Under the pieces are notes generated by a model. The model made no database searches, was not told where the DNA came from, and saw nothing but the letters and a program-made list of their open reading frames with translations. This document shows positions 4,303 to 55,473 of a stretch of DNA of 64,000 bases, piece after piece; positions within the stretch are counted from its first letter, which is position 1; each line of letters starts with the position of its first letter. This stretch comes from Bilabrum cf. latius. Lineage: Eukaryota. The stretch covers positions 1 to 64,000 of the forward strand of contig OZ237740.1 in assembly GCA_965178125.1 (NCBI GenBank), in the 5' to 3' direction. Position numbers and translations under genes: made by a program.

Positions 4303-4604
4303 AAAGCAGCCAATCGGATGGCAATTGAGGTCAGTGGCAGCTGGGCCAGCTTGTGAGAGGAGTTTGCCAATGTGCCAGCCAGTGACCCGTTAGGACGGAA
4401 TAGTAGGAGCCAAGAGGCATTCTGTTTAGTCTTGACTATAAGCCAACGAATATCTGCTATTAATACAATCCTCCAAAAATAAACCACTGCCATAAACATA
4501 ATCTCAACAGAACTACTGACTATCAAACGACTATCATCACAAAGACATGATTCCCATATTTTGAACGTGACATTATCAAGTGACCCCGATGACATCAAAG
4601 AGAT

Positions 4605-6247
4605 TTTTGCACCATGTTGTGGCCCTAGGCCGTCCCAATGCCGTTTGAACGGTCTTCATATCTCCTGTAGTTGCCGAGATCGTATCCCGCAGGATTTCAG
4701 CATGAAAATCTTCAAGGCCCAATATTGGCGCCGCGCGTCAAAAACGGAACCTGGGGAACATTTGCCCCATGTTGTGGCCCTAGGCCGTCCCAATGCAATT
4801 TGAACGGTCTTCATATCTCCTGTAGTTGCCGAGATCGTATCCCGCAGGATTTCAGCATGAAAATCTTCAAGGCCCAATATTGGCGCCGCGCGTCAAAAAC
4901 GGAACCTGGGGAACATTTGCCCCATGTTGTGGCCCTAGGCCGTCCCAATGCAATTTGAACGGTCTTCATATCTCCTGTAGTTGCCGAGATCGTATCCCGC
5001 AGGATTTCAGCATGAAAATCTTCAAGGCCCAATATTGGCGCCGCGCGTCAAAAACGGAACCTGGGGAACATTTGCCCCATGTTGTGGCCCTAGGCCGTCC
5101 CAATGCAATTTGAACGGTCTTCATATCTCCTGTAGTTGCCGAGATCGTATCCCGCAGGATTTCAGCATGAAAATCTTCAAGGCCCAATATTGGCGCCGCG
5201 CGTCAAAACCGGAACCTGGGGAACATTTGCCCCATGTTGTGGCCCTAGGCCGTCCCAATGCCGTTTGAACGGTCTTCATATCTCCTGTAGTTGCCGAGAT
5301 CGTATCCCGCAGGATTTCAGCATGAAAATCTTCAAGGCCCAATATTGGCGCCGCGCGTCAAAAACGGAACCTGGGGAACATTTGCCCCATGTTGTGGCCC
5401 TAGGCCGTCCCAATGCAATTTGAACGGTCTTCATATCTCCTGTAGTTGCCGAGATCGTATCCCGCAGGATTTCAGCATGAAAATCTTCAAGGCCCAATAT
5501 TGGCGCCGCGCGTCAAAACCGGAACCTGGGGAACATTTGCCCCATGTTGTGGCCCTAGGCCGTCCCAATGCAATTTGAACGGTCTTCATATCTCCTGTGG
5601 TTGCCGAGATCGTATCCCGCAGGATTTCAGCATGAAAATCTTCAAGGCCCAATATTGGCGCCGCGCGTCAAAAACGGAACCTGGGGAACATTTGCCCCAT
5701 GTTGTGGCCCTAGGCCGTCCCAATGCCGTTTGAACGGTCTTCATATCTCCTGTAGTTGCCGAGATCGTATCCCGCAGGATTTCAGCATGAAAATCTTCAA
5801 GGCCCAATATTGGCGCCGCGCGTCAAAAACGGAACCTGGGGAACATTTGCCCCATGTTGTGGCCCTAGGCCGTCCCAATGCCGTTTGAACGGTCTTCATA
5901 TCTCCTGTAGTTGCCGAGATCGTATCCCGCAGGATTTCAGCATGAAAATCTTCAAGGCCCAATATTGGCGCCGCGCGTCAAAAACGGAACCTGGGGAACA
6001 TTTGCCCCATGTTGTGGCCCTAGGCCGTCCCAATGCAATTTGAACGGTCTTCATATCTCCTGTGGTTGCCGAGATCGTATCCCGCAGGATTTCAGCATGA
6101 AAATCTTCAAGGCCCAATATTGGCGCCGCGCGTCAAAAACGGAACCTGGGGAACATTTGCCCCATGTTGTGGCCCTAGGCCGTCCCAATGCCGTTTGAAC
6201 GGTCTTCATATCTCCTGTAGTTGCCGAGATCGTATCCCGCAGGATTT
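4605..6247. repeat. 155-bp tandem repeat, about 10.6 near-identical copies
   Basis: A 155-bp period is visible in the sequence and in the ORF-track offsets (4671, 4826, 4981...). Only a few variant sites differ (GCCGTTT/GCAATTT, AAAAACGG/AAAACCGG, CTGTAG/CTGTGG). Confidence 0.98.
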
Positions 6248-6309
6248 TGTCAAAATTCGAAGATGAAAATATTTTTTCCCCGACCCTGTCCCTGACTTTA
6301 TATTAGATA

Positions 6310-8439
6310 CCCTAACCCTAACCCTAACCCTAACCCTAACCCTAACCCTAACCCTAACCCTAACCCTAACCCTAACCCTAACCCTAACCCTAACCCTAAC
6401 CCTAACCCTAACCCTAACCCTAACCCTAACCCTAACCCTAACCCTAACCCTAACCCTAACCCTAACCCTAACCCTAACCCTAACCCTAACCCTAACCCTA
6501 ACCCTAACCCTAACCCTAACCCTAACCCTAACCCTAACCCTAACCCTAACCCTAACCCTAACCCTAACCCTAACCCTAACCCTAACCCTAACCCTAACCC
6601 TAACCCTAACCCTAACCCTAACCCTAACCCTAACCCTAACCCTAACCCTAACCCTAACCCTAACCCTAACCCTAACCCTAACCCTAACCCTAACCCTAAC
6701 CCTAACCCTAACCCTAACCCTAACCCTAACCCTAACCCTAACCCTAACCCTAACCCTAACCCTAACCCTAACCCTAACCCTAACCCTAACCCTAACCCTA
6801 ACCCTAACCCTAACCCTAACCCTAACCCTAACCCTAACCCTAACCCTAACCCTAACCCTAACCCTAACCCTAACCCTAACCCTAACCCTAACCCTAACCC
6901 TAACCCTAACCCTAACCCTAACCCTAACCCTAACCCTAACCCTAACCCTAACCCTAACCCTAACCCTAACCCTAACCCTAACCCTAACCCTAACCCTAAC
7001 CCTAACCCTAACCCTAACCCTAACCCTAACCCTAACCCTAACCCTAACCCTAACCCTAACCCTAACCCTAACCCTAACCCTAACCCTAACCCTAACCCTA
7101 ACCCTAACCCTAACCCTAACCCTAACCCTAACCCTAACCCTAACCCTAACCCTAACCCTAACCCTAACCCTAACCCTAACCCTAACCCTAACCCTAACCC
7201 TAACCCTAACCCTAACCCTAACCCTAACCCTAACCCTAACCCTAACCCTAACCCTAACCCTAACCCTAACCCTAACCCTAACCCTAACCCTAACCCTAAC
7301 CCTAACCCTAACCCTAACCCTAACCCTAACCCTAACCCTAACCCTAACCCTAACCCTAACCCTAACCCTAACCCTAACCCTAACCCTAACCCTAACCCTA
7401 ACCCTAACCCTAACCCTAACCCTAACCCTAACCCTAACCCTAACCCTAACCCTAACCCTAACCCTAACCCTAACCCTAACCCTAACCCTAACCCTAACCC
7501 TAACCCTAACCCTAACCCTAACCCTAACCCTAACCCTAACCCTAACCCTAACCCTAACCCTAACCCTAACCCTAACCCTAACCCTAACCCTAACCCTAAC
7601 CCTAACCCTAACCCTAACCCTAACCCTAACCCTAACCCTAACCCTAACCCTAACCCTAACCCTAACCCTAACCCTAACCCTAACCCTAACCCTAACCCTA
7701 ACCCTAACCCTAACCCTAACCCTAACCCTAACCCTAACCCTAACCCTAACCCTAACCCTAACCCTAACCCTAACCCTAACCCTAACCCTAACCCTAACCC
7801 TAACCCTAACCCTAACCCTAACCCTAACCCTAACCCTAACCCTAACCCTAACCCTAACCCTAACCCTAACCCTAACCCTAACCCTAACCCTAACCCTAAC
7901 CCTAACCCTAACCCTAACCCTAACCCTAACCCTAACCCTAACCCTAACCCTAACCCTAACCCTAACCCTAACCCTAACCCTAACCCTAACCCTAACCCTA
8001 ACCCTAACCCTAACCCTAACCCTAACCCTAACCCTAACCCTAACCCTAACCCTAACCCTAACCCTAACCCTAACCCTAACCCTAACCCTAACCCTAACCC
8101 TAACCCTAACCCTAACCCTAACCCTAACCCTAACCCTAACCCTAACCCTAACCCTAACCCTAACCCTAACCCTAACCCTAACCCTAACCCTAACCCTAAC
8201 CCTAACCCTAACCCTAACCCTAACCCTAACCCTAACCCTAACCCTAACCCTAACCCTAACCCTAACCCTAACCCTAACCCTAACCCTAACCCTAACCCTA
8301 ACCCTAACCCTAACCCTAACCCTAACCCTAACCCTAACCCTAACCCTAACCCTAACCCTAACCCTAACCCTAACCCTAACCCTAACCCTAACCCTAACCC
8401 TAACCCTAACCCTAACCCTAACCCTAACCCTAACCCTAA
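6310..8439. repeat. Internal telomere tract, 355 x CCCTAA (2,130 bp)
   Basis: Perfect hexamer array in the same orientation as the terminal tract. Confidence 0.98.
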
Positions 8440-8447
8440 CCCCCCCT

Positions 8448-8662
8448 GGTGGCGTGGATGCGTGGGTGGTGGCTGGACAGGGCCATGGATGGTGGCGTGG
8501 ATGCGTGGATGCGTGGGTGGTGGCTGGACAGGGCCATGGATGGGGGGTGTGGATGCGTGGGTGGTGGCCGGACAGGGCCATGGATGGTGGCGTGGATGCG
8601 TGGGTGGTGGCTGGACAGGGCCATGGATGGTGGCGTGGATGCGTGGGTGGTGGCTGGACGGG
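8448..8662. repeat. Subtelomeric G-rich minisatellite, ~43-bp unit, about 4.7 copies
   Basis: Unit GGTGGCGTGGATGCGTGGGTGGTGGCTGGACAGGGCCATGGAT repeats with small indels directly after the internal telomere tract. Confidence 0.93.
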
Positions 8663-22936: not shown

Positions 22937-25900
22937 ATGGCTGTCTCGAAGGATGCTATCACTCGTGGCCTGAAGGATGTTGAAGATCCTGACAAGGATG
23001 TTCGTTACATGGCAATCAGCGATCTTGCAACAGAGCTAGGAAAGGAAGGACAGATCGACCCCCCTACGCAGCGGAGGTTAGTTGCGTTCTTCGCTTGCTT
23101 TATGATGCAGTCTGGAATGAGCTACAGGTTCATCTCCGCTATGAGAGACATGTTGAGTCACTGCATACTGTGATTGTCGTTTTTGGTGCTGTACGACCGC
23201 CTCAATCAACTCGACTGCCTTGTTTGATCCATCACAGGATTACCGCCGCCATCCTTGAGCGCATGGAGAAGGATGACTCTGCAGACGTCCAGACCATTGC
23301 AGTGCGATCGTGAGATTTGTATGCGCATTCCTGTTGCTTATATGCCGAGGATTGAACTGCATTTTCTGGTCCCTGTCTCGTGTTGCGCGTACATTTTGAA
23401 GCGCAGCCTGAAAGAGCTCGTGTCTGGTGCAAGCGAGGACACCGTGACGCAAGTTTGCAACACCCTGGCTACACAACTGGCCCATGGAAAGGCGGAAATC
23501 AGGGACGTTTTTGCAATCGGACTGAAAAAGGTGGTGTCCGAGGTCGAGGACGAGCAGGGCTTCATTGTGATTCGAGCTCTTCTTAAGCCATTGTACGACG
23601 ACGTGCAGGGTGCTCCTGGTGTCTCGCCAGAGGACCAGTCAGGAATCCGGGTAGAGGCGCTTGACGTCTTGAACGAGCTCCTGACGAGGTTCGGAGGCAA
23701 GGTGGTGGAGGCTGGCAGGACCGGGGCTGCCACGGTCTCCGACGCTGCACTTCTCAGCGTGCTCCTGAACCAACTTGGTGGCGCGGAAGCAGATACCCCC
23801 AAGCGTGCCATGCTTGCGCTGTCAGCTCTGTCGGCCCACCTCTCGGACGACTTGCTGCAGAGGCTCATGGACGCCCTGCTGGGAGCGATCGCCGCGGATG
23901 GGAAGCCGGGCGCGGCGTCGGGCGCGGGTGCGGCTGGACAGCCCTCTCGCATGGTTGTGGTGCAGGCTATCGGGGCAGTGTCTCGGCAGGTGGGCTGGAG
24001 GCTCTCTGCTTACCTAGAGCGCGTGCTGCCGCTGCTGGAGGCCGCCATGGGCAGCCCCGACGAGGAGGGCCAGGAGAGCGACGAGGTGTGCGAGCTCAGG
24101 GAGAACTGCCTGCATGCAGTGGAGTCGCTGGCAGAGCGCTGTGCTGCCGACATGGCGCCGCACGTGCCGCGCGTCCGTTCTCTGTGCTTGCGCTTTATGT
24201 CGTTCGATCCGAACTATTCGTACGAAGACGCCGATGATGTCGCAGGGGAAGGAGACGAGGACGAGTTCGACGACTACGGGGACGACGAGTACGGCGGGTA
24301 CGAGATGGACGATGGGGATGGCATGGACGCAGACGAGGACGGCACCTGGAAGGTTCGAAGGGGCGCACTCCGCACTCTGCGGGCGCTGCTGCGCTCACGG
24401 CCCGAGGATGTGAAGGAGTACTTCGACGGTGCAGCGGGTAGCGGCGGATAGTCGCCCGCCGTGCAGCTGCTGGACCGCGTGAAGGAACGCGAGGAGAGCG
24501 TGAGGCAGGACGTGCTGCAGTGCTTGCGCGAGCTGCTGCGGGCCACGGTGGTGGTGGAGGGAAACGCCCGGGTGGCGCTGCCCGCAGCCATCGCGTCTCG
24601 CCTTGGCATCGTCCAGGCCGAGGGAGCAGTGACCGGGTCCATGGGGGCGGCAGGAGGCGTGGGCATGGCCGCAGCAGCAGCTGCCGGCCTGCTGCAGCCT
24701 CCTGTGCTGGTACGGCAGAAGAGCGCGGCAGATCTGCTCGCCGAAGAGGTGGGGCCCGCCACCCTGGAGAAGCTGTCGGCTGAGCTGAGCAAGCCCTCTG
24801 GGCTCAAGCCAGCGACGCGCAGCGCCATGCTGGACGTGCTGCTGAGTCTGCAGAGGGCCGCAGGAGGCGCGCTGGCGGGGTCTGCAGCGCTGACCATCGG
24901 AGCTGGGGTGTCTGCCCTGGGCACGGACAGCTCGCAGGTGCAGCTGGACGGGCTGCGGCTGCTGACCACGTGCATGGAGATGATGGACTCGAGAGACCTG
25001 CTACCGCTGCTGGGCCCCGTGGTGGACCAGGTGACTCGGTGCTGCGCGGGAGAGTGGTACAGGCTCGTGGCAGAGGCCCTGCGCACCGCCGGCCGCATCG
25101 CCCTCGTGCTACGGCCCATGCAGGACGACGGCTCGGCATTCCGAAGCGATGTGCCAGCGCCTGACAGCGCCCAGTGCAGCAAGCTCTTCGATGCCGTGCT
25201 CGCGAGGCTGCGCGAGGTGGACATCGACCAGGAGGTAAAGGAGAGCGCCATCACCGCCTCTGGGCTGCTACTATCCTCCATGGGCGACCTGAGGCCGGGT
25301 GCAGTAGACGAGGTGCTGCCAGTGCTGCAGGAGAGACTCGACAACGAGGTCACTCGGACGGCCACTTTGCGCGCGCTGACCTTCGCAGCCACCTCCCCTG
25401 CCGCGCTCGACCTGAAGAAGCACGTGCCTGCGGTGCTGGACAAGGTCGCCGCCTTGCTGCGGCAGAAGAGCAGGCAGGTCCGCCAGTCCTCTCTCGCTGC
25501 TCTCGACGCGCTGCTCAGCAAGCACGCCGACGCCTCGGTCGCAAAGGGCCTTGAGCCCGTGCTGCAGAGCACCGCCGCCATGGTGGATGCCAGCGACGCA
25601 TACCTCGCCCAGTTGGCCCTGAGGGTTGCGGTGGACGCGCTCCGGGCGGGACCGGCCGCGGCGGCGCATGTGAAGTCCTACATCCAGCCCAGGGCGCTGC
25701 AGCTGTCGGCTTCGCCCCTGGTGCAGGGGTCCGCGCTCCGCGCACTGCGGAGCTACTTCGAAGCGGCTGTGGAGGTGGGAGGGGCTGCCGCGGTTGGCGC
25801 ACTTGCTGACGCTATCGTGCAGCAGGCGGCAGCTGGGTCTGGTGGTGCGTCTGGCGGGGCAGCCTCCGGGGCTGGTGCAGGAGGAGGGGACGAGGGGGAG

Positions 25901-27387
25901 CAGGCAGGCTCTCCCCGCCGCCAAGGCCTGCTCAACGCAGCCAGGTGCCTGGCATCTGTAGCGAAAGCCGGGGGCAGCGCGGCAAGCGGGATCCTCAAGC
26001 GCTTCTCGGATGACGCTGCTGCTGCTGCGGCCAACCCGTCGGCGTGCTCGCAGTCGCAGCTGCTGTCTGTCACGTCGATCGGCGAGTGTGGGGCCGAAGG
26101 CCTGCTCGCAGGCGATGCTCAGAAGCGCGCTTTCGACTCGCTCATGTCCAGCATTGAGGGAGACGCCGAGGACCTGAAGTCGGTGGCCAGCATCGCGCTT
26201 GGTGCCCTGATCGTAGGGTCCACGAGCGAAGCCTTGCCCGCCTTCCTCGCCCGCCTCAGCAAGGACGACAGCGCTGACAACTACTACCTGCTGTCTGCCC
26301 TGCGGGAGTGCCTGGAGAGGCATGCCCCGGCGACGCAATCGGGCCCTGATTTCAGCCCGGTCGCCGGCAAGGTCCTGCCAATTCTTGCATCCAAGGCGGA
26401 AACTGAAGATGAGGGAATCCGCAACATGGTTGCCGCATGCCTCGGCCTGCTCGCCGCCGCATCGCCCGGCGAAGTGTTCCCTCGCGTCACCGGCATGGCT
26501 TCTGATGGCGCCAGCAGCCCCGGACTTCGATGGGTGGCTTGCACTTCTGTGCGCTTCGGCGTGACGGCAGCTGGGGCGGGGCCATTCGCAGGTTGTGACT
26601 GGAAGCCATTCTTGGCGCTGTTGCATGACGCCGATCTGTCCGTCCGCCATGCAGCACTTCTGACCCTCGGTGCTCTGATCCAGCACGCTCCGAGCTCACT
26701 GCGCAGCACCCTTCGGCTGACAGAATGCAAGATTCCTCTTGAGGCAGAGCCTGAAGTGGATTTGGATGGGGTCGGAGTTTTGCCGCTCCTCTACTATGAG
26801 ACTGCAAGGCACGCTGGCCGTGTTCGCAAGGTGCAGTTGGGGCCGTTCAGCCATGAAATTGACGATGGCCTACCCCTCCGCAAATCAGCCTTCTCTGCTT
26901 TAGATGCGTAAGATCACGCGTAACTCGTATGCGCTTGCACCTCTATCTTAACTCTGCCAGTCCTATCCGCTCGATCTCAAGAACACCAACGCATCGCAGG
27001 ATCTTTACATTCATGAGCGACAGGGCTGACAGTGCGTTCCTCCCAGCTCTGTGCAAGGGACTGCAAGATCCCGCTGATGACGTTATTTTGCTTACGCATC
27101 ATACTCTTCTCAAGCTGATCTCCAACAAGTTTTGGCAGATTCGCGTTACTGCTGCCATCGACGATGTTGTCGAAGGATTGAAGCGCCCCTTCGATGCTTT
27201 GGCCACCGGCAAGAAGAGCAAGATGCCGGGCAATGACGTGCTGCGGTCATCCCTTCGAGTCGTTGATTCAATTTAGTCAAATTGCAAGGAAGCAATGTCA
27301 ACTGCGAAGTTTGAAGCAGTTTTGCAGCAGATTGACTCTATCCCCAAAACGAAGGAAATGCTTGCAGACATTCGGTCAGGTCCTTGA
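22937..27387 (+). CDS. CAND1: Cullin-associated NEDD8-dissociated protein 1 (HEAT repeats)
   Basis: Motifs DKDVRYMAISDL, ELRENCL, DPNY, WKVRR, KEREESVR, DIDQEVKE, RLDNEVTR, EGIRNMVA and GPFSHEIDDGLPLRKSAF. Three GT-AG introns. TAG at 24449 and 27274. TGA at 27385-27387. Confidence 0.96.
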
Positions 27388-28679
27388 CCATTTGGATCAG
27401 GCTAAATTCTTCTTGTCTGATTGAATTGGAGAGGCTATCTGTAATGCTTTATGTGGATCAAGCAGTCACAATCAAATCAGGTATTTATGAATCAAGATAT
27501 TTTCAATCAATGGGATCAAATAGCGCATTTGGTAAAAATATTTCCCTGAACTATATTTTTCTTGCCGTTCTGTTTGTTGCCCAAGTAGTCATGAATGAGG
27601 AGCATACTTACACATGGTTTGAGCGAACATGCGAGTACTGGGCCTATGACTTGAATCGTGGCCGTCGTAGATCTGACGCCTATTGTTTCCATTCGAAAAA
27701 CGTTTCGTGTTATTGCGGCATTTGTGATATGGGCTACATGGAACGGATCTGCCCCAAACTCTTAACTTTTGAAGATTAATTTAGATTTTACATAATATTT
27801 AAGGTGCCGTGTTTCGATAAATTCGAATTATCTAGGCACACAACATCGCAAAACTCACGTACAATTGAAATATCTAGACTAATTAGGGATATTTTGTGTG
27901 GTTAGCTATTTTGTTTGGAATAAATTATGATCTGTGTGGGTTTGGGATATGATTTAGAACAATAGGATAGAAGTTAGCGATTTGTTGGCTCGAAATGTAC
28001 TTTTTGGCATGGCAAAGGTCAAATTGCTATTCCAGCACGCCCACGTCTGATTGTCAGCATCTTGTGCCCAAGCACTGCTCCTCGACCGTATTCTTAATCC
28101 TGGGGACTTGAAGCTTTCTACCTTATCGCTGCAAGCAAATCAATCTTATTTGATTTTGTTATTTCTTACTGCATGTTCTTGCGGTTGATCTATTTGGTGA
28201 CAAAAGTACAGTAATAATATCTTTATAAAGAATCGGATGTAGTTATTCTGGAAAAAGTCGTATTGTCATAATCAATCGTCATCATCACCTTCGAGACCTC
28301 GCCTTGGACCCTCGCCCAAAACTAGTTCTCTGTGGCACTTATCGAGACTTCTGAGCTGAGTTAGGATGATCCAGAAACACCCATACCCCGCCGTGGTGGG
28401 GTTGTTGCGCAACTAAAGCTCCTGGAGCCTCGGGCTCGATACCCAGAGGAGGGCTTCCCGACCATCGGCATGCAAGCTCCTTTCCGATTCCGGCTCTGTG
28501 CAAACTATTGCCAGTTCAATATCCACCGGAGGCCTCGCGCGTTCTCCAACACAGGCAAGACGACAGCTCCATGTACTCTGCTTATAGAGATTAATTATTC
28601 TGAATGCATAATTATATATATTGTTTGCCAGTACCATTGCTTGAAATATGCGGGATTCAATCTTTAATGCCAATTTCAT

Positions 28680-30317
28680 TCACAAAATGACACGGATATA
28701 CTGAATGCCAAAACAGAGCAATAGAATGAGTAATTGGTTGGCTTCCATAGAAGGACCCTTCGTTCGGACAAGCGCTTCATCAAACTCTTGCAAAAAACTG
28801 CTGGATCTGTCGGCTGTGTCCATTATCATATCGAGCAATCTTGGAAATAGTGACTACCGCGATATGTTCAATACTTTGCCGGGCTATGATCGAATACGAA
28901 ACTGCACTTCATCATTTGGACAAGGTGTCTCTGATTCTTTCGCTTTAAATTGCTCTACGCTAGCACTAGGAACATCAAAAACGTGAACAGTGCTTGAATA
29001 GTCCCCAGCGACTACGTTCAGCATAATCTTAAAACTGTCGGTTGTGACACTCTTAAGAGTACAAAAATCGATCATGTCTTTCCAAGCTTTTCCGAAAGCG
29101 CCGTGCACTTGCATCAGACACCGCGCTGGACCTGAGTCAATCTTTCTAGGGGAATCTCCAGGCTTAGGTGGATAAGAAACACAAGCCCACATAGCAACTG
29201 GAAGCGACAAGCGTTGGCTCATACACGTGCACAGGCTTGCCTGGTCTTGATCCAAATTTCCGGCACGAAGAGCTACTGATATCATAGATTGAATCCGGTG
29301 GTGAGTGCCTGCAGGACACAAAACACTACCACATTTGACATCCTATAGAGTCTACGCTGAGCTTTTCGGATTGCTATGTGCAGTCGATAAAGAAGGCGAA
29401 GAAGTAGCAGCTGATACAGCCACCTGTGCAGATGATGCAGCTTGTGCTGGGGCAGTCCCTTGTGTACCTGACTGCCCGACGGGGCCAGAACTTAACTATG
29501 GCTGCAATACTTGGACTGCAGCTTGCCTCGCACCGATCTGGTGCATCAGCCAAGGGAATAGTGTATCACCAGGAGATGCAATCAGGCGCTCCAGTAACTT
29601 GTGGTCAAATCCAACCAACTTCGATGCTTTGATGAAAGCATCCAAATCATCGGTTTGCTGTGGTGTCCCAATGAAGTCAACTTCAAATGCGCCCTACCTT
29701 GGCAGCACGTCCAAATGCAAAGGCATGCCTGCTGCTTGATCAGATAAAGAGGCGTCTTCTGCAGGGGCGACTGTAAGCGCGTGTTTCAGGGCAACAGAGT
29801 CTATCCGTCGCTTCTTGCCGGCACGAGTGCCTTCCTCTGATTCAGTAGCTACGCTTCCCGGTTTTCGCTATGCTCCAGGTGGCATTTTAATGAGCCCTTT
29901 CGATCTGTCTGTCTGGTCCATCGTGCTCGATGATGCTTCGCGTAATGGACTGTTGTGTGCCTGCAGGCTGGCTTCGTCGGAATCGGGCTTTCGGCGCTTC
30001 TCGCCGCAAACGGCAGCTGCAGCCCGCGATAGAACACCTTCTGCAACAGCCCCAATCGTGCTTTTGAGCAACTTTGCAGTGGCCTCGCGATCCGTAGGAG
30101 CAATCTAGAGACCTCTTTCAGATATTTTCTGCTCGAGCCAAATTAGAAAGTGGTCCTCCGACACAGAACTGCTTGACCCACTTGCGTCAGTCTCCATGTC
30201 ATACAATAGGTCAAGGAGGCAACTTGTTTCCTGCTATCCAAAGCCTTCGTGTTGCCCCTGGGGTTTGCCGCAGCAGCAGGTTCGTGCGATTCCGAATTGC
30301 AGAAGTTGCAGTTGCCA
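28680..30317 (-). CDS. Hypothetical protein (major exon; ends uncertain)
   Basis: 1,638-nt frame with 9 TAG and no TAA/TGA in moderate-GC DNA. Further exons may lie at about 30430-31125 and 28270-28580. No family recognised. Confidence 0.5.
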
Positions 30318-31127
30318 TCATCAACATTGTGCGCACACGATGGCACCACAGATCTAGTGCAAGGTAAGACCTGCTCGTGAAATAGACATTTTATGGACCA
30401 TGGCTTCTATTCGGCTCATCAAGTTATGTTATCCGACTATCCAAAGCCCCCGAGCCACCCTGTCCCACCTGCCACACGCAGACGGACGCCTATACACTGA
30501 GCAGAGCCAGAGAGATTGTATCCAGCCATATTCAATACCGTGGCTCACCAGCAAGTACCCTTCCGAGTCAGCAATATGCGAGCGAGCATCAATTGTTCGC
30601 CATTCACTGGCAGCGCCAGCCCCATGGACCTGACAGGCCACGGCTGTGGTGCAAGAGCTCCCGTGCACTGTAGCGGGGGTAAATGTCGATATAAGCTCAG
30701 AAGAGAAGGGTGAATCATTGCTGTGGACCCAGCTGCCTCCTATTTGAAGGCAGGATCTGAGCGCGGTCATCATCGATCGTGAGCACTGCGTGCTGGCGCT
30801 GCTTGGCAGACGCTGCCATCTGTCGGGTGGGACACGCAATCGACCTCGACCGGGATGGTCGTTGCTGTAGCAGAAGATATATAAGAATCGCGCCATGCGA
30901 CCATGTACAACGACCATTGGCACCCAGCCTGGTGGACCGCAGCGTGTGATTGTCCAGTCCACAACGCTTGGGGGAGGGCGAGAGCTGGTGCCCCAGTGCA
31001 GTGTAGGTGCAGGCTTGCTCGGCTTCCCGACAATCAGCAGTCGGCCAGCATAGAGTGGATGTTAAATTGCATTGGAAGGCTGCACTCACCGCGACTATTA
31101 CTCGAGGCCAATCCCCACCAGCCATGG

Positions 31128-34100
31128 GGGGATCTGATATTTTGTGGACTCAACTCAAAAGCGCACGCTATCACGAAGAAACATCTGGAACGAGGGCCCG
31201 GGACCTACCAGACTTCACGCTTCAGCTGCAATGGCCTAAACCACCTAAGCTCCACCCTGGGGACCCATTTCCCCCTGGGGAGCGTCAGCGTTCACGTTCC
31301 CTCCGGCGCCCGCTGCCGGCACCCCGTCCTGCTGCCCGTTCTGAGCCAACCCTGCCTTGACGTTGGCGATCGCCACGGCGAGGTTGTTGTTTTCGGCTGC
31401 CCCTACAGCCAGGCTGGCAAAGTCCTCCCGGACCGCCCTTGCGAGCGCCCGTTTGGCCTTCGCTGCAGCCCTCCTCGATCCCTTCGAGACAAAATCGAGG
31501 ATCCTTGAGTGGTCCTGCATGACCCGTGAGTACATAGTGTGGTACACACGCTGTTCCCCGCGCACGTGCTGGTGCTAGGCGGCAACGGAGAGGCGAGCCT
31601 TTGCCACAGAAGACCACGAGAGGCGTGCGTTGGCCGGACGAGTCGAAACCCGCCGCCCTTTGTCCTCCTACCTCTTCTTCCGCAACTTGTCGAGCACCTG
31701 CAGGAACTCGACCGACTTCTCCCCGATTCCCCCCAACACGTCCACCACAAAGGGTACGACCCGCACGCCACTGCGTACCGCCCCTTTCTGCGTCCTCACG
31801 GTCCCAGGACACCACTTGTCTTCTCCTCCGATCCGGACGCCGAGCGCTCCGAGGTCGACGGGCCTGCCGTAGCTGGCCAGCTTCGTGGCATGCGCGGCCC
31901 GCAAAGCAGACCCCTCTTGCCAGTCGCTGCCAATCCTCCACGACGAGCGGTCCCACCGGTAAGTTGCCGCAGTGGAATCAACCACCGTGACATCGATGAG
32001 ATAAGCCGTCCCCTCGTGCTCAAAGAACAGGTCGCCGCGTGGCACGAGCGGACCGCGCCGACCCGGCAGCCGGGCCACTTGGCCCTCTGGCTCCCGGATA
32101 GGGCGTCTGCCCGTGGCCTCGCGGACCACCTGCTCGAGCACGTTGAGCACCCGGAAGTGCCTGCGGCCTGGAAGGCCTCCGCAGACACGCTTGTCCTTGC
32201 ACGTGGCACCGTGGCGAACTGACTAGATCAGTTCGACTACCTTGCCCTGCTTCCGGCACCCCGGGCAGATCTGCGTGACGCGCCACGCCTCCCCACATGC
32301 ACCGTGCGTTGCCCCAAGAGGTTGTGGGGGACAGCTGCACGGCTATGGGATGGCGAGACGCTGGCAGAACATGCCCCGGGCATCTTCAGGCTGGACTCGG
32401 CTCAGGACAGAGAGCGGCGCATGCAGCCAAGACCCGGCTCCTTGGGACCTGGCGGCGCGGATTGTGGCTCGCGCCACTCCTGCGTACTCTCTGGTGACTG
32501 CATCGACTGGAGCGAGTCTGTCGTGCGCAAGCGGAGATGAGGCATCCCAGAGGAGCCTCTCCACCTGCACTCGCTCAGCCAGTGCCGTCACATGGCTCTG
32601 GTTGTGCCCTCCTGCGGCACCTTCGAGAAAACGAATAACCGCCTGCGATGCGGTGGGTGCCGGCTGCTCCCCAGCCAGCTGCCTCGTCACCCATGCCCGA
32701 AGGTCCTTCACCTCCAGGCGCCAGGGTTCAGTGGCCCCACCGCACAGCTCCATACGGGCTGCCTTCTCGGCTGGGCTGCCCAGGAGTTCCGAAGTGCGGG
32801 CTGTGTCCCACACCATACCATAGCGTGGGGGGACGTCAGCCTCCGGAACAAGTGGAAGCAACGGACTCGGGAAACCAGCCATCCCGAAATTGTCTTGCTT
32901 CCCCTCTTGTACGAGTCTCCCGTACTTCGAGATTGCGGTCATCACCGTGTCCACAAGGGAGTTCAGGCGCGCGGTGCGCCCTCGCAGTGGGTTCAGCAGA
33001 GGGGGTGCCTCCCCGGCACCTGCCGCCGCACCTTCCCCGACCTCCTCCGCCGGGTCCCACTGGTTGAGCGCCACCTGCAGGTGTGGCAGGTTGAAATCGC
33101 GTGCTACCCTCGCCAACCAAGGCCACACATCCAACAACCCCCCGACGCACATTGCCTCCCGGGTTAAATCGGCAGGCACGAGCCCCACTCCGAGACCCCC
33201 ACGGGCAACGGATAGCGGACCCAGCACGTCCAACACCTGTCTCTGGGCCTGCGAGAGAGCGCTTACACGCATCCCTGTCAGGAACTCCAGAAACGCTCCC
33301 TACACTTCCTTCAAGTGGGGTGTCACCCCGTCCTTAAGCTCGGGCAAGAGGCACCCGCTCCTGTGCACGTGCGTCCACGCCGGCACTACGCACCGGGCAA
33401 ACAGTGCGCGCGCACTGATTGGGTCCAGGTAGGCCAGGCGAAAAGCCTGGACCACCGTCTCTTCCAAGCGTCCCTTCAAGACTTGTTCGGCCACTCCGAC
33501 TTCGGTCCCTACCGGGACGCCCAGGATCCTCAGCCCATGCTCGTGGACCACTCCTTCGAGCCTATCCTCCTGGTCTGGCGCCAATAGGTGGACCAGGCGC
33601 TAATAGGTGGCTCGGGAGGGGGAGAAGAACGACGTTTTCTTCTAGTTGAGGGAGAGGCCGACGTCCCCCAACTTCCCCTCCAACGTGGCGATGGCTGCCC
33701 TGACATTATCTAGCTCCCCCAACAGGAACACGTCGTCAAGGTACGCTACTAGGTACACATCCATGTGGGCAATCTTTGTCGCTTTCAGAGCGCCCTAAAT
33801 GGCTGCGCAGAACAGCGCTGGAGACAATGGCGACCCCTACAGCACCCCCTCCAGGTTCTGCACAAGCTCTGTTCCATCCTCGCCAGACACAACACCATGT
33901 ACTGCGTGCTGCAGACACTGGTGTACGTAAGTGCCCAGTCCGGTGGACAGCGACGCCAAAGCTTGCAAGGTCGCCTTCCGATGGATGGAGCCATATGCAT
34001 CCGAGGCATCCAGCGCAGCGACCACCCACTCAGGGTTAGCGCTGAGAAGAACCTGGATCGTTGCAATGGCTCCGTCCATCCCGCACTTGAGCCCCGCCCC

Positions 34101-35698
34101 CATCTGGTGTGGGGCGCAAGCTCGCTACACCTTCGGCAGCAATTCGGGCCGAAGGGCTCGGCTCACAAATGTATGCCACTGAGGCTGGATTGCGATGACC
34201 CTGAACTCCGAGCCCCCCTCCCCTTTCGGGATTGGGACCCCTCGAAACAGGCCCAGGCACGCGAACAGGCACGGCGGCAGGGCTCCCTCAACCATGGACT
34301 AGCAGAAGGCATGGAAGTCGTCATAAAGCCGCTTCACATCAGCTCCCTCCCCGGTCAGCAAGGTTTTCAGCACCTCTCTCGTCACACCAAAAGCATCTGG
34401 CGCCTTGAGTCGCAGGGCCTTCTAGACCTCCTCCCCTAGTCTAGCCCCCGACAGCTCCACCACATGCTCGCGCGCGTCTCCTCCAGTTCCCCCTCGTCGG
34501 CCTCTTCGCACCGGGCGTGTCCAGCGGAACCTGGGGATCGGCTGGGACCTCTTGGTGCGAAACTTCCCCTAAACCTTCGCCTGCATTTCGGCTGCCGTAC
34601 CCCTAGCGTGGGGCCTAGCAGCCAACCGCGACATGGCCTTACGGTAGTCCCCGATCGACAGAAACCGGAGGCAACTGCGTACTGCCTTGCGCGATGGGGG
34701 GGAAGGAAGTCCCTTGCCACTGACGCTGGAAAGGATACCCCCCAACTTCTCCACAATCCTCCCGCGGGCTGCGAGAGACTCGGGATCATCAGATGGGGAG
34801 CTCCCACTCTTTCGGTCTACCACGGCTCCACCAGCTATGGCTTCCTACTCAGCGGCAGCTTCGCGCGGGACACGAGAATCCGACGGCCGGCGACACAGCA
34901 AAACAAACACTTTCAGCTTATGTAAAGCCTACAGCGTGAGCTTCTCCTCCAGTTCTTTGCCTTTACCAGAATCGTTGGTCCAGGCGGAGGATACATTCAT
35001 AGTCTCCTTCAGGAAGAGAGAAAGGGCGGCTCGCGCCTCCTTTTTCTAATCTAAATTCATACTACGAAGCGCTGTCTCGCGTTCGGGCCAGAACGCACAC
35101 TCAAGGATCAGCTTGCGAACGTCGTCGGGCAGTGGCACTGCCTCCAACTCAGCCGCCTAATGCTCCGCAGGAACCCCCGCTCCGGCCCCGCCGGCAACTT
35201 GTGGGACTGCATGTGGAACATTTGCTTCACCCTGATCTGCATCTTCTTCAGCTGCGGCGACTGCGGCATTATCTGCCCCCGGCGCCGCCTCAGCAACCAC
35301 GATTGCTGCACCTCCGACCGCCGCCTCACCCACAGGCTAGGGAGGCTAAGCGTGACCGAAGTGCTAGCGTCCAATGACTCCGTCGGAATCAGAATCATTG
35401 GAATCGGGGGGGTTGGGGACTCCTGGTCCGGTCTAAGCGGCGCTGGCAGCACCGGCAGAATCCTTGGCAAGTAACCTTCCCAAGGCGAATCTTTGCGCGA
35501 CTCCCACACCCATTCTGGGCATCTTACCCTTACCGGCAACACGCCCTGAACGTAGGACGATCTGACCCCCCCCGGGGTCATCCATTTCCCAAGGAGATTG
35601 CCATCCAATACATTTGTAGCGTGCAGTTAGGGTTTCTTTCCCAGGATCTTGCCTTGCCAAGAACACGCCTGTATTCTGGCACCTGACATTGTGGGGTT
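31128..35698 (-). mobile_element. Non-LTR retrotransposon with restriction-like endonuclease (CRE-like, R2 superfamily), apparently intact
   Basis: Single ORF encoding RT, a CCHC knuckle and a PD-(D/E)xK-type RLE. Boundaries are taken from the 10-bp direct repeat CCAGCCATGG at 31118-31127 and 35699-35708. No poly(A) tail seen, so the ends are tentative. Confidence 0.88.
31215..35585 (-). CDS. Retrotransposon polyprotein, RT + CCHC + RLE, about 1,456 aa
   Basis: One frame with 23 TAG and no TAA/TGA. Motifs in order: GDYRKAM, KAPDAFG, IPK...FRVIAI, PHQMG, LDASDAY, GVL[TAG]GSPLSPALF, AYLDD, GLSLN, ILGVPVG, GGLG, AGSWL, CPGC...HGATC...RH, RGDL...IDVTV, K...Y, VPFVVDVLG, RLSVAA[TAG]. Confidence 0.93.
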
Positions 35699-35704
35699 CC
35701 AGCC

Positions 35705-38700
35705 ATGGACGAATTTCGGTCAATATGTACTATCCTTTAGTCTGATATGCCGGTTGATGAATTGGTTCCTTCGCTCTAGTGTCTACCAGCCAAGCTTCGC
35801 ACCACATTTTAGCATGATGCCAGCGTGGACGACTTGCAACGAATGGGACTTGTACAGTGCTGGAAAGAGTGCGTGCCATCAGTTGTGAAACGAGTGTCTG
35901 AGTTGAAACTGGGCGGCAACGTGCCTGCATCTAGCGCAGCGAGAGAGTGCTTGGCTGCATGCGCCCGAACCTGCGGCCTCATTTTGCCGTGCTTGCCGAA
36001 GGAAGCTATTGCTTGCCTGTCTTGCTGTACGGACGCCTCGAATCATGTGTATTCAGATGAAGAGCCTAGTGCTGGGGCAAAGAAAGACGGTGGGGAGGAA
36101 GGAGCAGCGCCCTCGGGTTCGTCAACCGACGACACAACTTGGCGCAAGGCCCTGGGGTTCCAGGGACTGGTAGATGTCGTCACCACCGCCCAAGGAAAGT
36201 AGACCTGGAAGACAGGAACTATCATGCTCGAAGTAAGTCCACAATTAGCGGCGCCATCGTGCAGAATGCTGCTCAGTTTTGCCACCCGGCGAATGCCGAT
36301 ATCCTCCTCTATGTTAAATCACCTACAATGCGCGTTGCATCGCAGGATGGCGACCATCTTACAGTGTTCTTCGAAGATGGAACCCCGGAGCAGGTGGTCG
36401 ATCGTTTCGCCCCCACGCTGCAGCGGCCAGCCACCATGCTGGGCAAGCCGGTGGAGGCGGCTCCGGGTCCAGGGGCTCAGGGCGCCTCTTCCTCCTCCTC
36501 TTCTGCAGCAGCCGGCGGGGCACAGGCAGTCGCAGACGTGGATGCAAAGCTGGCGTGGGCAAATTTGCTTCGTCCCGGTGACGTGATCGACGTGGAGGAC
36601 AGGGAGCGGCGGTGGTCGAGTGCCACGGTGGTGCACGCGGGGGAGATGCCTGGGTACTAGGTGAGCGGCATCACCGTGGGCTTCAGGGTGTACTGCTCTG
36701 CGGGGCGCAGCACGGACCGCAAGGGGCGTCGCTACGACGGCCTAGGCGCAGAGTGGGACGAGGCCATCTCGCTGATAGCCGGGAACATGGTGCGACTGGA
36801 CAAGCCGGGGGCCAGGACCAGGGGCCTGGCCTACTGCCTGCTGCCTCCCGGGATCGACGCAGGCATCGACGATGCGGATGATCCGATCATTCGACTAGAG
36901 GGGCCGTCTCGCGATGCGGCATCTGCAGCTGCCCCCGCACCAGCAGCTGCTGCAAGTTCGTCTAGCGATGTCGCGGGATCAGCCGCTGCCCCTGCCCCTG
37001 CCCCAGCTCCCATCCCTGTTCCTGTCCCAAAAACAGAAGCAGGGGCAGGAGCAGGAGACGACTCGAGCGACGATGGAGTTCTGGATGAGCACGCCGAGGA
37101 GCAGCCCGTCCATCCTACTCCCGCCACGCAAGCTCCCGGGCTTGCCAAGCAAGCACCAGACGGAGCACAGCCTGGTCCCACACCCGCCTCGAGCGCTTCG
37201 TCTGCTGTGGCAGCGGCATCGACTGGTCCAGCGCCTCTGTCCAATGTCACGACGGAGCAGGCACAGGCTGCTAGCGCTGGCGACGCGAAGAGCATCCAGG
37301 CTGTGCTGGACGTAATCAGGGCAGCGCTCGTGCCCATGCCCGAGTCCGCCAGTGCCAGTGCCAGTGCCAGTACCAGTGCCGGCTAGGGCGCTGCTGAATC
37401 GCGGCCGCAGTTGATGGGGCAGTACCCAGTCCCCACCGCACCCACTGTTCTTTAGCCCCAGGTCCCCATGGATGGGTATTCAAGCCCATACGGAGGTGCT
37501 TAGACATAGGGGCAGTCGTTGTATGGAGGTGCGCAAACGAACCCATACGGGGCCGCACAGGGGCAGCTGGTGCACGGTGGCCTCATCGGCCACGGCGGTT
37601 CTGGTGCTGGTGCTGGTGCTGGTGCTGGTGCTGGTGCTGGTGCTGGTGCTGGTGCTGGTGCTGGTGCTGGTGCTGGTGCTGGTGCTGGTGCTGGTGCTGG
37701 TGCTGGTGCTGGTGCTGGTGCTGGTGCTGGTGCTGGTGCTGGCGGTGCAGGCGTGGGTGCCGTTGGTGCTCCTGGGCCTGCTGATGCACGCCCCACTGCC
37801 GATACCTTGGTCATTCATCGCCGCGGACTGTCTTCCAATGAGGTGTTGGCTTCTATCCGAGCTTTTGCGGATAGCGGTGGCTTGTCTGTTCTGCTGGCAG
37901 GACTGCTTAGCTTCGTGTCGCCGGGTGATGCTGTCGCCTCGCTCCGATAGTATGGCCGTGCCCCCGATCTGGCAGACCTGCCTGTGTTCTTGGACGCGCT
38001 GCGGCTGCTGGGCCGGGTGTGGCCGCACTTGAATCGGCACGCAGTGGCAGCCGTGGGTGCAGTGCTATCGACAGTGGCTGAGGGATGCAGCCGCAGCCTC
38101 GGTAAGGAGAAGGTCCTCAGGAGCTTTCAGCCGGAGCACGCTATGGCACTGGACGAGACACTGCCCCCTGTGCTGTGGAGGCACTGTGGAAGGCAGGAGG
38201 TGCGCCAGCTGACCCGCAGCGCGCAATGGTCACTCGTCTGCAGCGCGCTTTCTGGACCCCTGTTTCCCCCCAAACCGCTTGCCATCCGAGCTATGGGCCA
38301 AATGGTGTCTCAGTATCTATCTGGAGAGCTAAGAGAACCGCAGCAGTTCAACTATCATGGAGGACGGCCCATGCCGCACCCTCTGCGGTTCGCCGTGCAG
38401 CCCTGGTTGACTCCAACCCGGTTGCGAAGACTCATGGAGGAGCATGGGGTGCTGGACCGCATCTTCGGGAGCGGCGGGACACCACAGTGGTTTGGCGAGG
38501 CACTTTCTCGGCTAGACAAGTGGGCACAGGACTACGTGAGCCCCGTTCGAATGGAGCCCGGGGAAGAGGGTGCTGGCCGCGACGAGCAGACGGAGGGTGT
38601 GCATGTTTGGCAGCAGTGCGAGCCCGCGCTGGTGGAGGTCTCGGAGCCTCTCTTGAAAGCCATGGCACAGCACGGGCAGTTTCAGGGGCCAGTGGTGCTG

Positions 38701-53383: not shown

Positions 53384-55473
53384 ATGCCGCGTCGTGCCAG
53401 TGCCCGTGCCCGTGCGGCTAGTAACGCCAGGGCAGCGCGTACAACACAAAGGAATTAGCCCCCTTCAGCGGCTTCATCAGTGAGACGGCATTGTTATTTG
53501 CTCCAGTCTGTTTTGGACATACGTTTCGTGGTGCACGATCACCTTGATACAGCGCCACACGAAACGCAGCTTTCCAAATTATACACCAGCACTTTCTCTG
53601 ATACCAGCAGTACAATCGCCGAAGCGAGTAGACTGCAGTTCGTAGTGCAGCCTTAGCCGCCGCTGCAGCAGCAGCAGCTTCTGCCAGAGCTTCAGGCGAC
53701 CGAGCAAGTCACAGGGAAAGCGGAGTACACCCTAGCAGTCGACGTGTCCAAGTTGTATCTGACATGATTTACGGTGACGACTCGGAGGACTCGGAGGACG
53801 ACGAAGACTACGATCACGGCGGTTGGGGACATTACGGTCCACGATACAATCAGTACTATGAAGAAGAGGAAGATGAGGACGAGGAGGAAGAGGAAGATGA
53901 TCCAGGCCACGGTTTTGTGCATGGTGATATGTTTGATTCGGGTGAAGTTGGACATCGCGGTCCGGGTCGCCCACTTGTGTTTCCAGCCTTCGGGCAAAGC
54001 CTGGCGCGCATGTTTGCGATGAGCATGATGCTTGGGGGAGGGGGGCACGAGGGTGGGGGTATGCAGGGGGCACGCATTCCTCTGGGTATAGGCATTCATG
54101 CGGGCATGTCCATGACAGCGGCCATTCGCGCCTCGATGGAGCATGCGGAGCGCGAGGCAGACCGCCGTGCCGGGGTTAAAGCAGACCTGCGGCAGCACAT
54201 CCAGGAGAAGCCCATGTCCGAGAGCGACTGCAAGGAGCACGGAGAATGCGCCGTGTGCTTTGAGGACTTAAAACCGGGCGAGAGGGCCGTGCAGCTGCCC
54301 TGCGAGCACTGGTACCACAAGAAGTGCATCGACCCGTGGCTGGACAAGAGCGTCACCTGTCCCATGTGCAGAGCACCCATCGATCTGCAGTCCCTCAGGA
54401 AGGCAGGCATGGTTCCAGGCTTCTCCAAAGGAGGGTACGTGGACCTGACTGAGGATGGGGACGGGGAAGGCGGCGGATCAGACGGTCAGCACACGGCAAC
54501 CAGGGTCAGCCCTCAGAGCCTCAGCAGCGCGAGCTCAGCTGGCAGCTCGGCCACACGCCCCCCACAAGTCCCTCGAGCAGCCTCCAGAGTGATCGATCTG
54601 GTGTCTTCGGATGAAGAAGAGGACGGGGAGCAGGGGAGGCAGGGACGGGCTCGTGCAGTTGCTGGGGCTCTACCTGGAGCTCGAGCTCAAGTGCGAGCGC
54701 AATTGCGGGCGGGATCGCGGGCGCGATAGAGAGCTGGCGCTGGTTCTGGAGTTGGCGCCGGTGCTGGCAGTGGCGCCAGGGCTGGAGCTGGTTCTGGAGT
54801 TGGTGCCGGTGCTGGCAGTGGCGCCAGGGCTGGAGCTGGTTCTGGAGTTGGCGCCGGTGCTGGCAGTGGCGCCAGGGCTGGAGCTGGTTCTGGTCAGCTT
54901 GCTGGTTTCCAAAGAAGGGTGCCCCACCGCTGGGATATGAACCAAATGGTCGGCCCATCTGCAGTGCGAGTCGTGGACTTGGATTCACCCTCCCCGCAGC
55001 AAGCTGGGCGGCGGCAGCGGCAGAGCAGGGGAGAAGGGGGCAGGGCCGGAGCAACCGCTGGAGCAGCCAGCAGCCCTGTGGTCGCAAGATCACGGAAGCG
55101 ACCCAGGTCCGAAATGACGATGCCGGTAAGGAGGACGGTCCGTGGGTCAAGAGCGGCCGCTGGCGTCGGGACCGGTGCGGCGCCTGCCAGGCCAGCAGAA
55201 AGGCGGGCCGTTGCAGTGGCTCAGGCGGCCGCTATTCGGGAAGCCCGGGATGGAGCAATTGGCTCGCCCGGCGTGCCATCTGCTCGGAGCTCAGTTAGGC
55301 GTGCATCTAGATAGCCTATCGTGGGTACTGGCGGGGCGCCGCAAGCGCAGCAGCGTACGGGCACTGAAGCACAGGCATCCGTGCGGGCAAGCCTTGGGGA
55401 AATGCTGGTACAGAACCGGGATGAGAGGCAGCGTCGCAAGCGTAGGAGGCGCGAGCGCGAGGAAGCAACGTGA
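53384..55473 (+). CDS. RING-H2 E3 ubiquitin ligase with SUMO-interacting-like motifs
   Basis: RING-H2 CAVC...LPCEHWYHKKCIDPWL...CPMC and SIM-like YVDLTED, VIDLVSSD, VVDLDSP. TAG at 54727 and 55312 are read through to TGA 55471-55473. The 5' exon (53384-53479) and its intron are tentative; alternative start at 53764. Confidence 0.85.
54739..54893 (+). repeat. 48-bp coding tandem repeat x3.2 (AGSGVGAGAGSGARAG)
   Basis: Visible directly inside the RING gene, just downstream of an in-frame TAG. Confidence 0.93.

Follow-up and report, generated by a model that had tools for sequence, protein, structure and literature searches.

The first 64,000 nucleotides of contig OZ237740.1 from Bilabrum cf. 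latius (GenBank assembly GCA_965178125.1), from here on called the window, are nuclear DNA of a GC-rich (~60%), intron-poor eukaryote. In unique DNA between a 545-codon open reading frame (ORF) and a gene for a ubiquitin hydrolase lies a retrotransposon, which a first-pass annotation made from the letters alone had described as an intact element with a restriction-like endonuclease (RLE), adapted to a host that does not use the standard code.

That annotation had counted a single ORF of about 1,456 codons with 23 in-frame TAG and neither TAA nor TGA. The counts were recovered exactly (23 TAG, 0 TAA, 0 internal TGA), on the minus strand. The frame from stop to stop is longer (31215-35978, 1,587 codons, 25 TAG), but the 131 codons by which it exceeds the ORF are not part of the repeated unit. 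Over the same stretch the five other frames contain 7-29 TGA and 2-13 TAA each, from which it follows that the open frame of the element is not due to chance. With the standard code the element is unreadable, as had been claimed: the longest open piece overlapping its region is 318 amino acids. Taken with the evidence given below, it is highly probable that the locus holds a full-length copy of a multi-copy, single-ORF non-LTR (non-long-terminal-repeat) retrotransposon or LINE (long interspersed nuclear element), built like R2 and translatable only where TAG stands for an amino acid, whose protein consists of an N-terminal region, a reverse transcriptase (RT) with thumb and linker, a Cys/His zinc knuckle and an RLE of the PD-(D/E)xK type.

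The limits of the copy (Table 1) were drawn from Logan contigs of four public runs (X1, X5, X6 and X8) aligned to positions 27000-37500. Position 35599 is the common stopping point of the element contigs in all four runs. Contigs of the single-copy flanks enter the repeat by only ~25-30 nt (X6 record 23 from 35570, X1 record 4 to 31150), and contigs from other copies part from the studied locus at 31126, where X5 has a loose end. The terminal run of C is also the last point at which the element can be aligned with L002 and L003, two loci of a sister family described below; beyond it all three differ. Of the earlier limits, 31128 and 35698, the 3′ end was thus correct to within 2 nt, whereas the other end had been placed ~100 nt too far out.

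Table 1. Coordinates of the element and its parts (numbering of the window, except for the junctions, which are numbered within the sister loci)
Feature	Position	Strand	Basis
Full-length element, whole repeated unit, ~4,474 bp	31126..35599	minus	contig ends, sister-locus divergence
5′ untranslated leader, very short, 14 nt	35586..35599	minus	repeat boundary to first in-frame ATG
Single ORF, 1,456 sense codons plus TGA stop (31215-31217)	31215..35585	minus	ATG at 35585
Reverse transcriptase core (Pfam RVT_1) with YLDD catalytic motif	33516..34211	minus	E 5.7e-15
TAG at the conserved Gln of RT motif B (GVL-TAG-GSPLSP), residue 714	33837..33839	minus	homologue column
C-terminal Cys/His zinc knuckle and restriction-like (PD-(D/E)xK) endonuclease	31539..32441	minus	predicted fold, conserved columns
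TAG that is CAG in other near-identical copies, ORF codon 1081	32343..32345	minus	contig variants
3′ untranslated region, 89 nt, oligo-C terminus, no poly(A)	31126..31214	minus	sequence, sister loci
Composite junctions, 3′-terminal fragments	L002 80-145 and 4550-4696; L001 269-330; L004 1499-1542; L003 ~4440-4480		

The reading of the protein as RT, CCHC knuckle and RLE, which the first-pass annotation had taken from motifs, is confirmed by tests independent of them. In the stop-to-stop translation Pfam assigns residues 590-821 to RVT_1. A HMMER search against 1.84 billion representatives gave 2,709 matches at E <= 1e-3, and in the alignment A1 (61 sequences) D278 and D279 of the RT catalytic motif are almost unvarying. 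Used as a profile against the PDB, A1 matched R2 proteins in a single stretch from RT to endonuclease (9nl3_A, 1.4e-59; 9dou_A, 2.2e-59; 8gh6_A, 6.9e-40) and the LINE-1 ORF2p with its RT part only (5e-30); both rank above the RTs of group II introns and retrons. A local profile of the C-terminal domain, with the consensus C.C...H...C, RH, R.D, DV.V, K...Y and F.P..E..G, matched 90 of 169 collected proteins, 9 of which were its own seeds, which indicates that most of the RT relatives carry the same C-terminal domain.

The predicted structures agree with the profiles. An AlphaFold model of residues 471-1480 (predicted local distance difference test, pLDDT, 77; predicted template modelling score, pTM, 0.80) has R2 proteins as the top six in Foldseek; only R2 chains align over the whole length of this 1,010-residue model, whereas LINE-1 ORF2p ends near residue 670-705. 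When the C-terminal 301 residues were modelled separately (pLDDT 77.3), ranks 1-7 in Foldseek were again all R2 (E 4.6e-4 to 1.2e-2). In a search of 48,161 chains this model superposed on R2Tg (9dou_A, chain 1165-1382) with a Z score of 14.6 and a root-mean-square deviation of 3.7 Å over 204 residues and on R2Bm (8ibw_C, chain 880-1104) with 14.0 and 3.5 Å over 200 residues. After R2 came PD-(D/E)xK nucleases (cap-snatching endonucleases, Hjc, VRR-NUC and Vsr) and Prp8, with Z scores of 7.2 or less. The knuckle region falls within the R2 superposition. C49, H77 and C81 are almost unvarying in the alignment A7, and the studied protein has further Cys residues (CPGC); an insertion makes its knuckle spacing differ from that of the family consensus. 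The C-terminal alignment has almost unvarying C, H, C, D, K and G columns, and the D, D and K of the endonuclease are present in the element.

Pfam found no protease, no apurinic endonuclease (Exo_endo_phos) and no RNase H in the element protein. Its nearest relatives are metagenome proteins and hypothetical proteins of Cymbomonas (four Cymbomonas proteins among 20 clusters, of which five more bear the bare label 'hypothetical protein'), and a profile search of a set of 5.8 billion proteins gave no named match. One distant profile relative, the metagenome protein P0194, has an Ulp1-type Peptidase_C48 domain at residues 1179-1358, downstream of the RT, an uncommon place for the protease of an RLE element.

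The element is present in multiple copies with an excess of 3′ ends. In all four runs the depth summed over contigs, a rough proxy for copy number, is highest near the 3′ terminus and declines in the 5′ direction. For flanks, 3′ end and 5′ part, in this order, it amounts to 2-3, 100 and 6-8.5 in X6; 48-97, 6,947 and 0-592 in X1; 28-51, 636 and ~167 in X5; and 5-8.5, 33-42 and 20.8 in X8. Loose contig ends mark truncation junctions at 31462, 31509, 31836 and 32454. Dispersed copies with variable 5′ truncation are the footprint of target-primed reverse transcription, and this is the pattern found. Public protein sets contain fragments 99% identical to the studied copy that end exactly at its TAGs (P0005, P0011) and others that are 53-74% identical, the clusters P0004 and P0009 being found on several contigs.

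A metagenome scan queried with the pairwise alignment A4 yielded four loci of a sister family, L001 to L004, with flanks that differ from those of the studied copy. L002 is an intact sister element which, counted from its ATG, has 1,455 codons, 21 of them TAG; L003 belongs to the same family and has one nonsense change (GGA to TGA); L001 and L004 are 5′-truncated. Between the copies of the studied family purifying selection is evident. Forty differences were listed (66 more lie outside this listing), of which 28 are synonymous, 12 non-synonymous and 26 at third codon positions, a bias that points to selection on the protein while the family spread.

Several observations weigh against the interpretation of the locus as an R2-built element read with TAG as sense. 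The strong R2 match was obtained with a family profile in which relatives only 20-24% identical to the studied protein predominate, and when the single element sequence was compared with the PDB no R2 chain appeared at E <= 1. No zinc finger, Myb or other DNA-binding domain was found at the N-terminus, either by Pfam (RVT_1 alone at E <= 1) or by inspection of the Cys pattern, which would not exclude a diverged fold; the N-terminal 459 residues have no assigned fold and contain three Cys only, without a C2H2 pattern. None of the runs is recorded as RNA, and the contigs cannot show strand or transcript ends. The sole candidate for a target-site duplication is the 4-bp ATGG (35604-35601 and 31125-31122), which is within chance and comes from the one copy with two flanks. 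With respect to the code, both TAG columns of the host UAP1 are variable among 120 homologues and therefore uninformative on the meaning of TAG, and a tRNA scan of the window found none. Depth summed over contigs is, as said, a rough proxy for copy number.

The element is intact and probably an active R2-like RLE LINE. X5 and X8 hold near-full-length element contigs, the one from X8 being 3,809 nt long (31807-35599) with 30 differences. In these two runs the neighbouring gene is represented by an intron-less form only, whereas X1 and X6 keep the intron; X5 also has a poly(A) loose end. The co-occurrence in X5 and X8 of intron-less neighbour and element contigs is a weak hint of transcription, not proof of it. 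The intron in question, in the 5′ part of the ubiquitin-hydrolase gene, is a GT..AG intron of 113 nt (36233-36345, junction 36232 to 36346).

It could be asked whether the studied copy, or even the whole family, is an immobile relic that is still open yet inactive. In X1, X5 and X8 the variants of high depth deviate from the studied copy at ~0.8% of sites, and 12 of the 40 listed differences are non-synonymous. We consider such a relic unlikely, since all 1,456 codons are open, the catalytic YLDD, the Cys and His of the knuckle and the D, D and K of the endonuclease are present, ~99% identical copies exist, and the bias towards synonymous changes speaks for recent selection at the protein level.

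In the proposed mechanism, the protein would bind its own RNA and the endonuclease would nick chromosomal DNA; by target-primed reverse transcription the RT would copy the RNA onto the nick, beginning at the RNA's 3′ end, which is oligo-C rather than poly(A). The copying would often stop early and leave 5′-truncated copies.

Where the element inserts is a separate question. The first-pass annotation had stated that the copy is not in ribosomal DNA (rDNA), spliced-leader or telomere repeats, and this holds. The flanks are unique, of single-copy depth and among protein-coding genes; the nearest telomere-type array is ~22.7 kb away; and Rfam found no ribozyme, ribosomal RNA (rRNA), small nuclear RNA (snRNA) or spliced-leader RNA over 30800-36200, its only match being a chance one to a long non-coding RNA (E 0.6). 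The element stands head-to-head with the ubiquitin-hydrolase gene, ~76 nt from the start of that gene's contigs in X5 and X8. The similarity of the flanks to the element is within the range of shuffled sequences: for instance, 129 of 500 shuffles reached the score of the 5′ flank against the inverted 3′ untranslated region, and 19 of 500 that of the same flank against the beginning of L002. By BLAST, the rest of the window has no match to the element or to L001-L004.

The annotation had gone on to suggest a new target preference, and this part found no support. The 3′ flank of another copy is unlike that of the studied one (they diverge at 31126), the studied flanks do not resemble the element, and neither a zinc finger nor a Myb domain was detected at the N-terminus; on these three grounds we propose that target choice is loose. 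It is simpler to assume that strict site specificity has been lost.

The sister family has a peculiarity that bears on this point. At all four of its loci a second fragment of the family lies 10-17 nt from an element end. Its orientation is direct in L001, in L003 and on the 3′ side of L002; in L004 and on the 5′ side of L002 it is inverted. The RT of R2 is known for template jumping, and template jumping, or priming from both nicked strands, would yield such paired-fragment junctions; a preference for insertion beside old copies is a possible alternative. An element specific for a target that has gone unrecognised, be it a defined short sequence or the neighbourhood of its own copies, could be argued from these junctions, from the ATGG on either side of the studied copy and from the target specificity that most RLE elements have according to PMC4640811. 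We judge it improbable. Template jumping explains the paired fragments equally well, only one complete pair of junctions is at hand, and the differing 3′ flanks, the flanks without above-chance similarity to the element, the N-terminus lacking a detected zinc finger or Myb and the absence of an RNA gene from the Rfam results for 30800-36200 all speak against it.

The TAG codons of the element stand for an amino acid, almost certainly glutamine, as the neighbouring host genes require. All 12 host ORFs examined need TAG as sense (1-28 each), ending in TGA (10) or TAA (2). Opposite the TAG in RT motif B, 54 of 54 distant homologues have Q (Q244 of A1, almost unvarying). Two further TAG columns of the element have Q as the commonest residue (20/54 and 18/47), and in L002 one TAG lies within a P.Q.G motif whose column is Q in 52 of 52 homologues. 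The element and L002 are 62% identical over 1,445 residues in pairwise alignment. Opposite the 23 TAGs of the element, L002 has Q 6, TAG 5, G 2, M 2, E 2, A 2, K 2, V 1 and R 1; opposite the 21 TAGs of L002, the element has Q 8, TAG 5, E 3, G 2, A 1, S 1 and one gap. For the 44 TAGs of both elements together the partner is thus Q in 14 cases, TAG in 10 (at 5 shared positions) and E in 5. At codon 1081 X5 and X8 show, at full depth, an A>G change (position 32345) that converts TAG to CAG, and L002 also has Q there.

That TAG might be read as another amino acid, or suppressed by low-level readthrough, has little probability. It is true that E, K and G also occur opposite TAG in close copies, that the host UAP1 columns gave no meaning for TAG and that no suppressor tRNA was seen in the window. 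But the codons of E, K and G are one or two mutations away from TAG, Q is its commonest partner (14 of the 34 that are not TAG), and at two invariant RT positions Q stands in 54 of 54 and 52 of 52 homologues; 23 readthrough events per protein would result in next to no product.

With glutamine as the meaning of TAG, its share can be compared. TAG makes up 32% of the Gln-type codons in the element (23/71) and 30% in L002 (21/69), as against 12.7% in the 12 host ORFs pooled (78/615; element versus host, Fisher p = 5.6e-5), so that the element uses TAG ~2.5 times as often as its host. We infer that the excess reflects a faster drift towards mutational equilibrium. Among the host ORFs the share ranges from 2% (CAND1) to 25% (UAP1), the highest values being found in short or lower-GC ORFs; this spread may reflect expression level or the age of the gene since reassignment. 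The first-pass annotation held that the element must have co-evolved with the code change. The data do not support this; what can be seen is long residence in hosts that read TAG, from the 5 TAG positions shared with a sister family at 62% identity and from the exchange of TAG and CAG among near-identical copies. Drift of this kind is to be expected of any resident element.

A domesticated, single-copy host RT gene, for which the intact ORF and the head-to-head position ~76 nt from the 5′ end of the neighbouring gene's contigs might be cited, is scarcely credible in view of a depth many-fold above that of the flanks with 3′ excess and truncation junctions, of near-identical and 53-74% identical fragments on many other contigs and of sister copies in other flanks. 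Domestication and heavy decay of the copies were the two outcomes named in the first-pass annotation as speaking against its view; instead, the family is multi-copy, with ~99% identical copies and an intact L002.

Of the known elements R2 (R2Bm of Bombyx mori and R2Tg of Taeniopygia guttata; 8gh6, 8ibw, 9dou, 9nl3) is the most similar. It shares with the studied element the single ORF, the order RT, linker, zinc knuckle and C-terminal RLE, the lack of a poly(A) tail and the 5′-truncated copies, and it provides the best profile and fold matches in the PDB. Unlike R2, the element has no detected N-terminal zinc finger or Myb domain; R2 occupies a fixed site in the 28S rDNA, whereas the flanks here are unique, with no rRNA match in 30800-36200; and neither a ribozyme like that of hepatitis delta virus nor any other Rfam match was found in the element. 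Similarity to R2 was not detected with the single sequence, and the superposed endonuclease domains are 14-19% identical.

CRE, SLACS and CZAR of trypanosomatids and Genie, GilM and GilT of Giardia are single-ORF LINEs of protists that also bear an RLE. They are bound to spliced-leader genes or telomeres, the Giardia elements forming head-to-tail arrays near telomeres. These arrays recall the paired fragments of L001-L004. The distance of the studied copy from the nearest telomere-type array, given above, sets it apart from these groups.

The NeSL and Utopia elements, as described by Kojima and Jurka (2015, PMC4640811), share the central RT and the C-terminal zinc finger and RLE. They differ in having 1-3 N-terminal zinc fingers (which the same paper gives for RLE elements generally) and in some cases an Ulp1 protease, neither of which was found in the studied element, and in targeting spliced-leader or U2 snRNA genes, whereas there is no RNA gene at 30800-36200. 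Dualen/RandI elements, which according to PMC5029228 are common in protists and marine plankton data, likewise have an RLE and a CCHC finger downstream of the RT, but according to the same paper add an apurinic-like endonuclease and an RNase H; Pfam finds neither of these here. The architecture is known and the family is new, the named RLE clades having been compared by features alone. Judged in this way, the element works like R2, yet does not show the features that set the R2 clade proper, NeSL/Utopia and Dualen apart.

Possibly, although we would not call it probable, the element, its sister family and the ~80 metagenome relatives with the same C-terminal domain form an undescribed, deep clade of protist RLE LINEs. 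Such a clade would be marked by a missing N-terminal DNA-binding domain, by site specificity that has been lost, by a 3′ end in oligo-C and by composite insertions whose fragments lie 10-17 nt apart, head-to-tail or head-to-head, and arise via template jumping. In that case the element, with its 2.5-fold excess of TAG, would be a fast-ticking recorder of the time since TAG was reassigned in the host. Irrespective of the clade, the known RLE families are extended by one from a protist lineage that has been little sampled, a family that has seemingly given up strict target specificity.

Transposons of ciliates and of CUG-clade yeasts are also written in the variant code of their hosts. Here the lineage and the class of element are different, and TAG alone is reassigned. 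In the limited collection of literature that was searched, no paper dealt with a stramenopile reading UAG as glutamine, with retrotransposons in such a host or with mobile elements that use a non-standard code. Current views are not overturned, because resident transposons are expected to follow the code of their host. The element is, however, an independent witness of the code change, with TAG placed where every relative has glutamine. Elements in a recoded genome become locked to it; for this one the 23 premature stops would make an ordinary host a dead end. The difference in TAG usage hints that fast-evolving elements near a new mutational equilibrium sooner than host genes and could help to date the reassignment.

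The host ORFs of the window include a 4,105-codon ubiquitin hydrolase, an M14 carboxypeptidase, CAND1, a tetraspanin and UAP1; the named UAP1 homologues are from stramenopiles (Hondaea, Phytophthora, Nothophytophthora and diatoms) with ~40-52% identity, which tentatively places the host in this group. The CAND1-like ORF (23228-26911) ends 43 residues into its TIP120 domain (profile positions 9-51 of 166); an intron or a frame change probably lies beyond its end. The ubiquitin-hydrolase ORF contains (GGTGCT)24 at 37597-37742, which encodes a long Gly-Ala run, and a RING-finger ORF contains a 48-nt repeat at 54733-54893.

Two telomere-type arrays are present, (ACCCTA)91 at positions 1-546 of the window and (ACCCTA)356 at 6309-8442, ~6 kb inside. 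The window is either a chromosome end with a second, internal array or an assembly join. Directly before the internal array there is a 155-bp satellite (4606-6247; 10.6 copies, 98% alike) and directly after it a 43-bp repeat (8447-8659). Satellite, array and 43-bp repeat together are a subtelomere-like structure.

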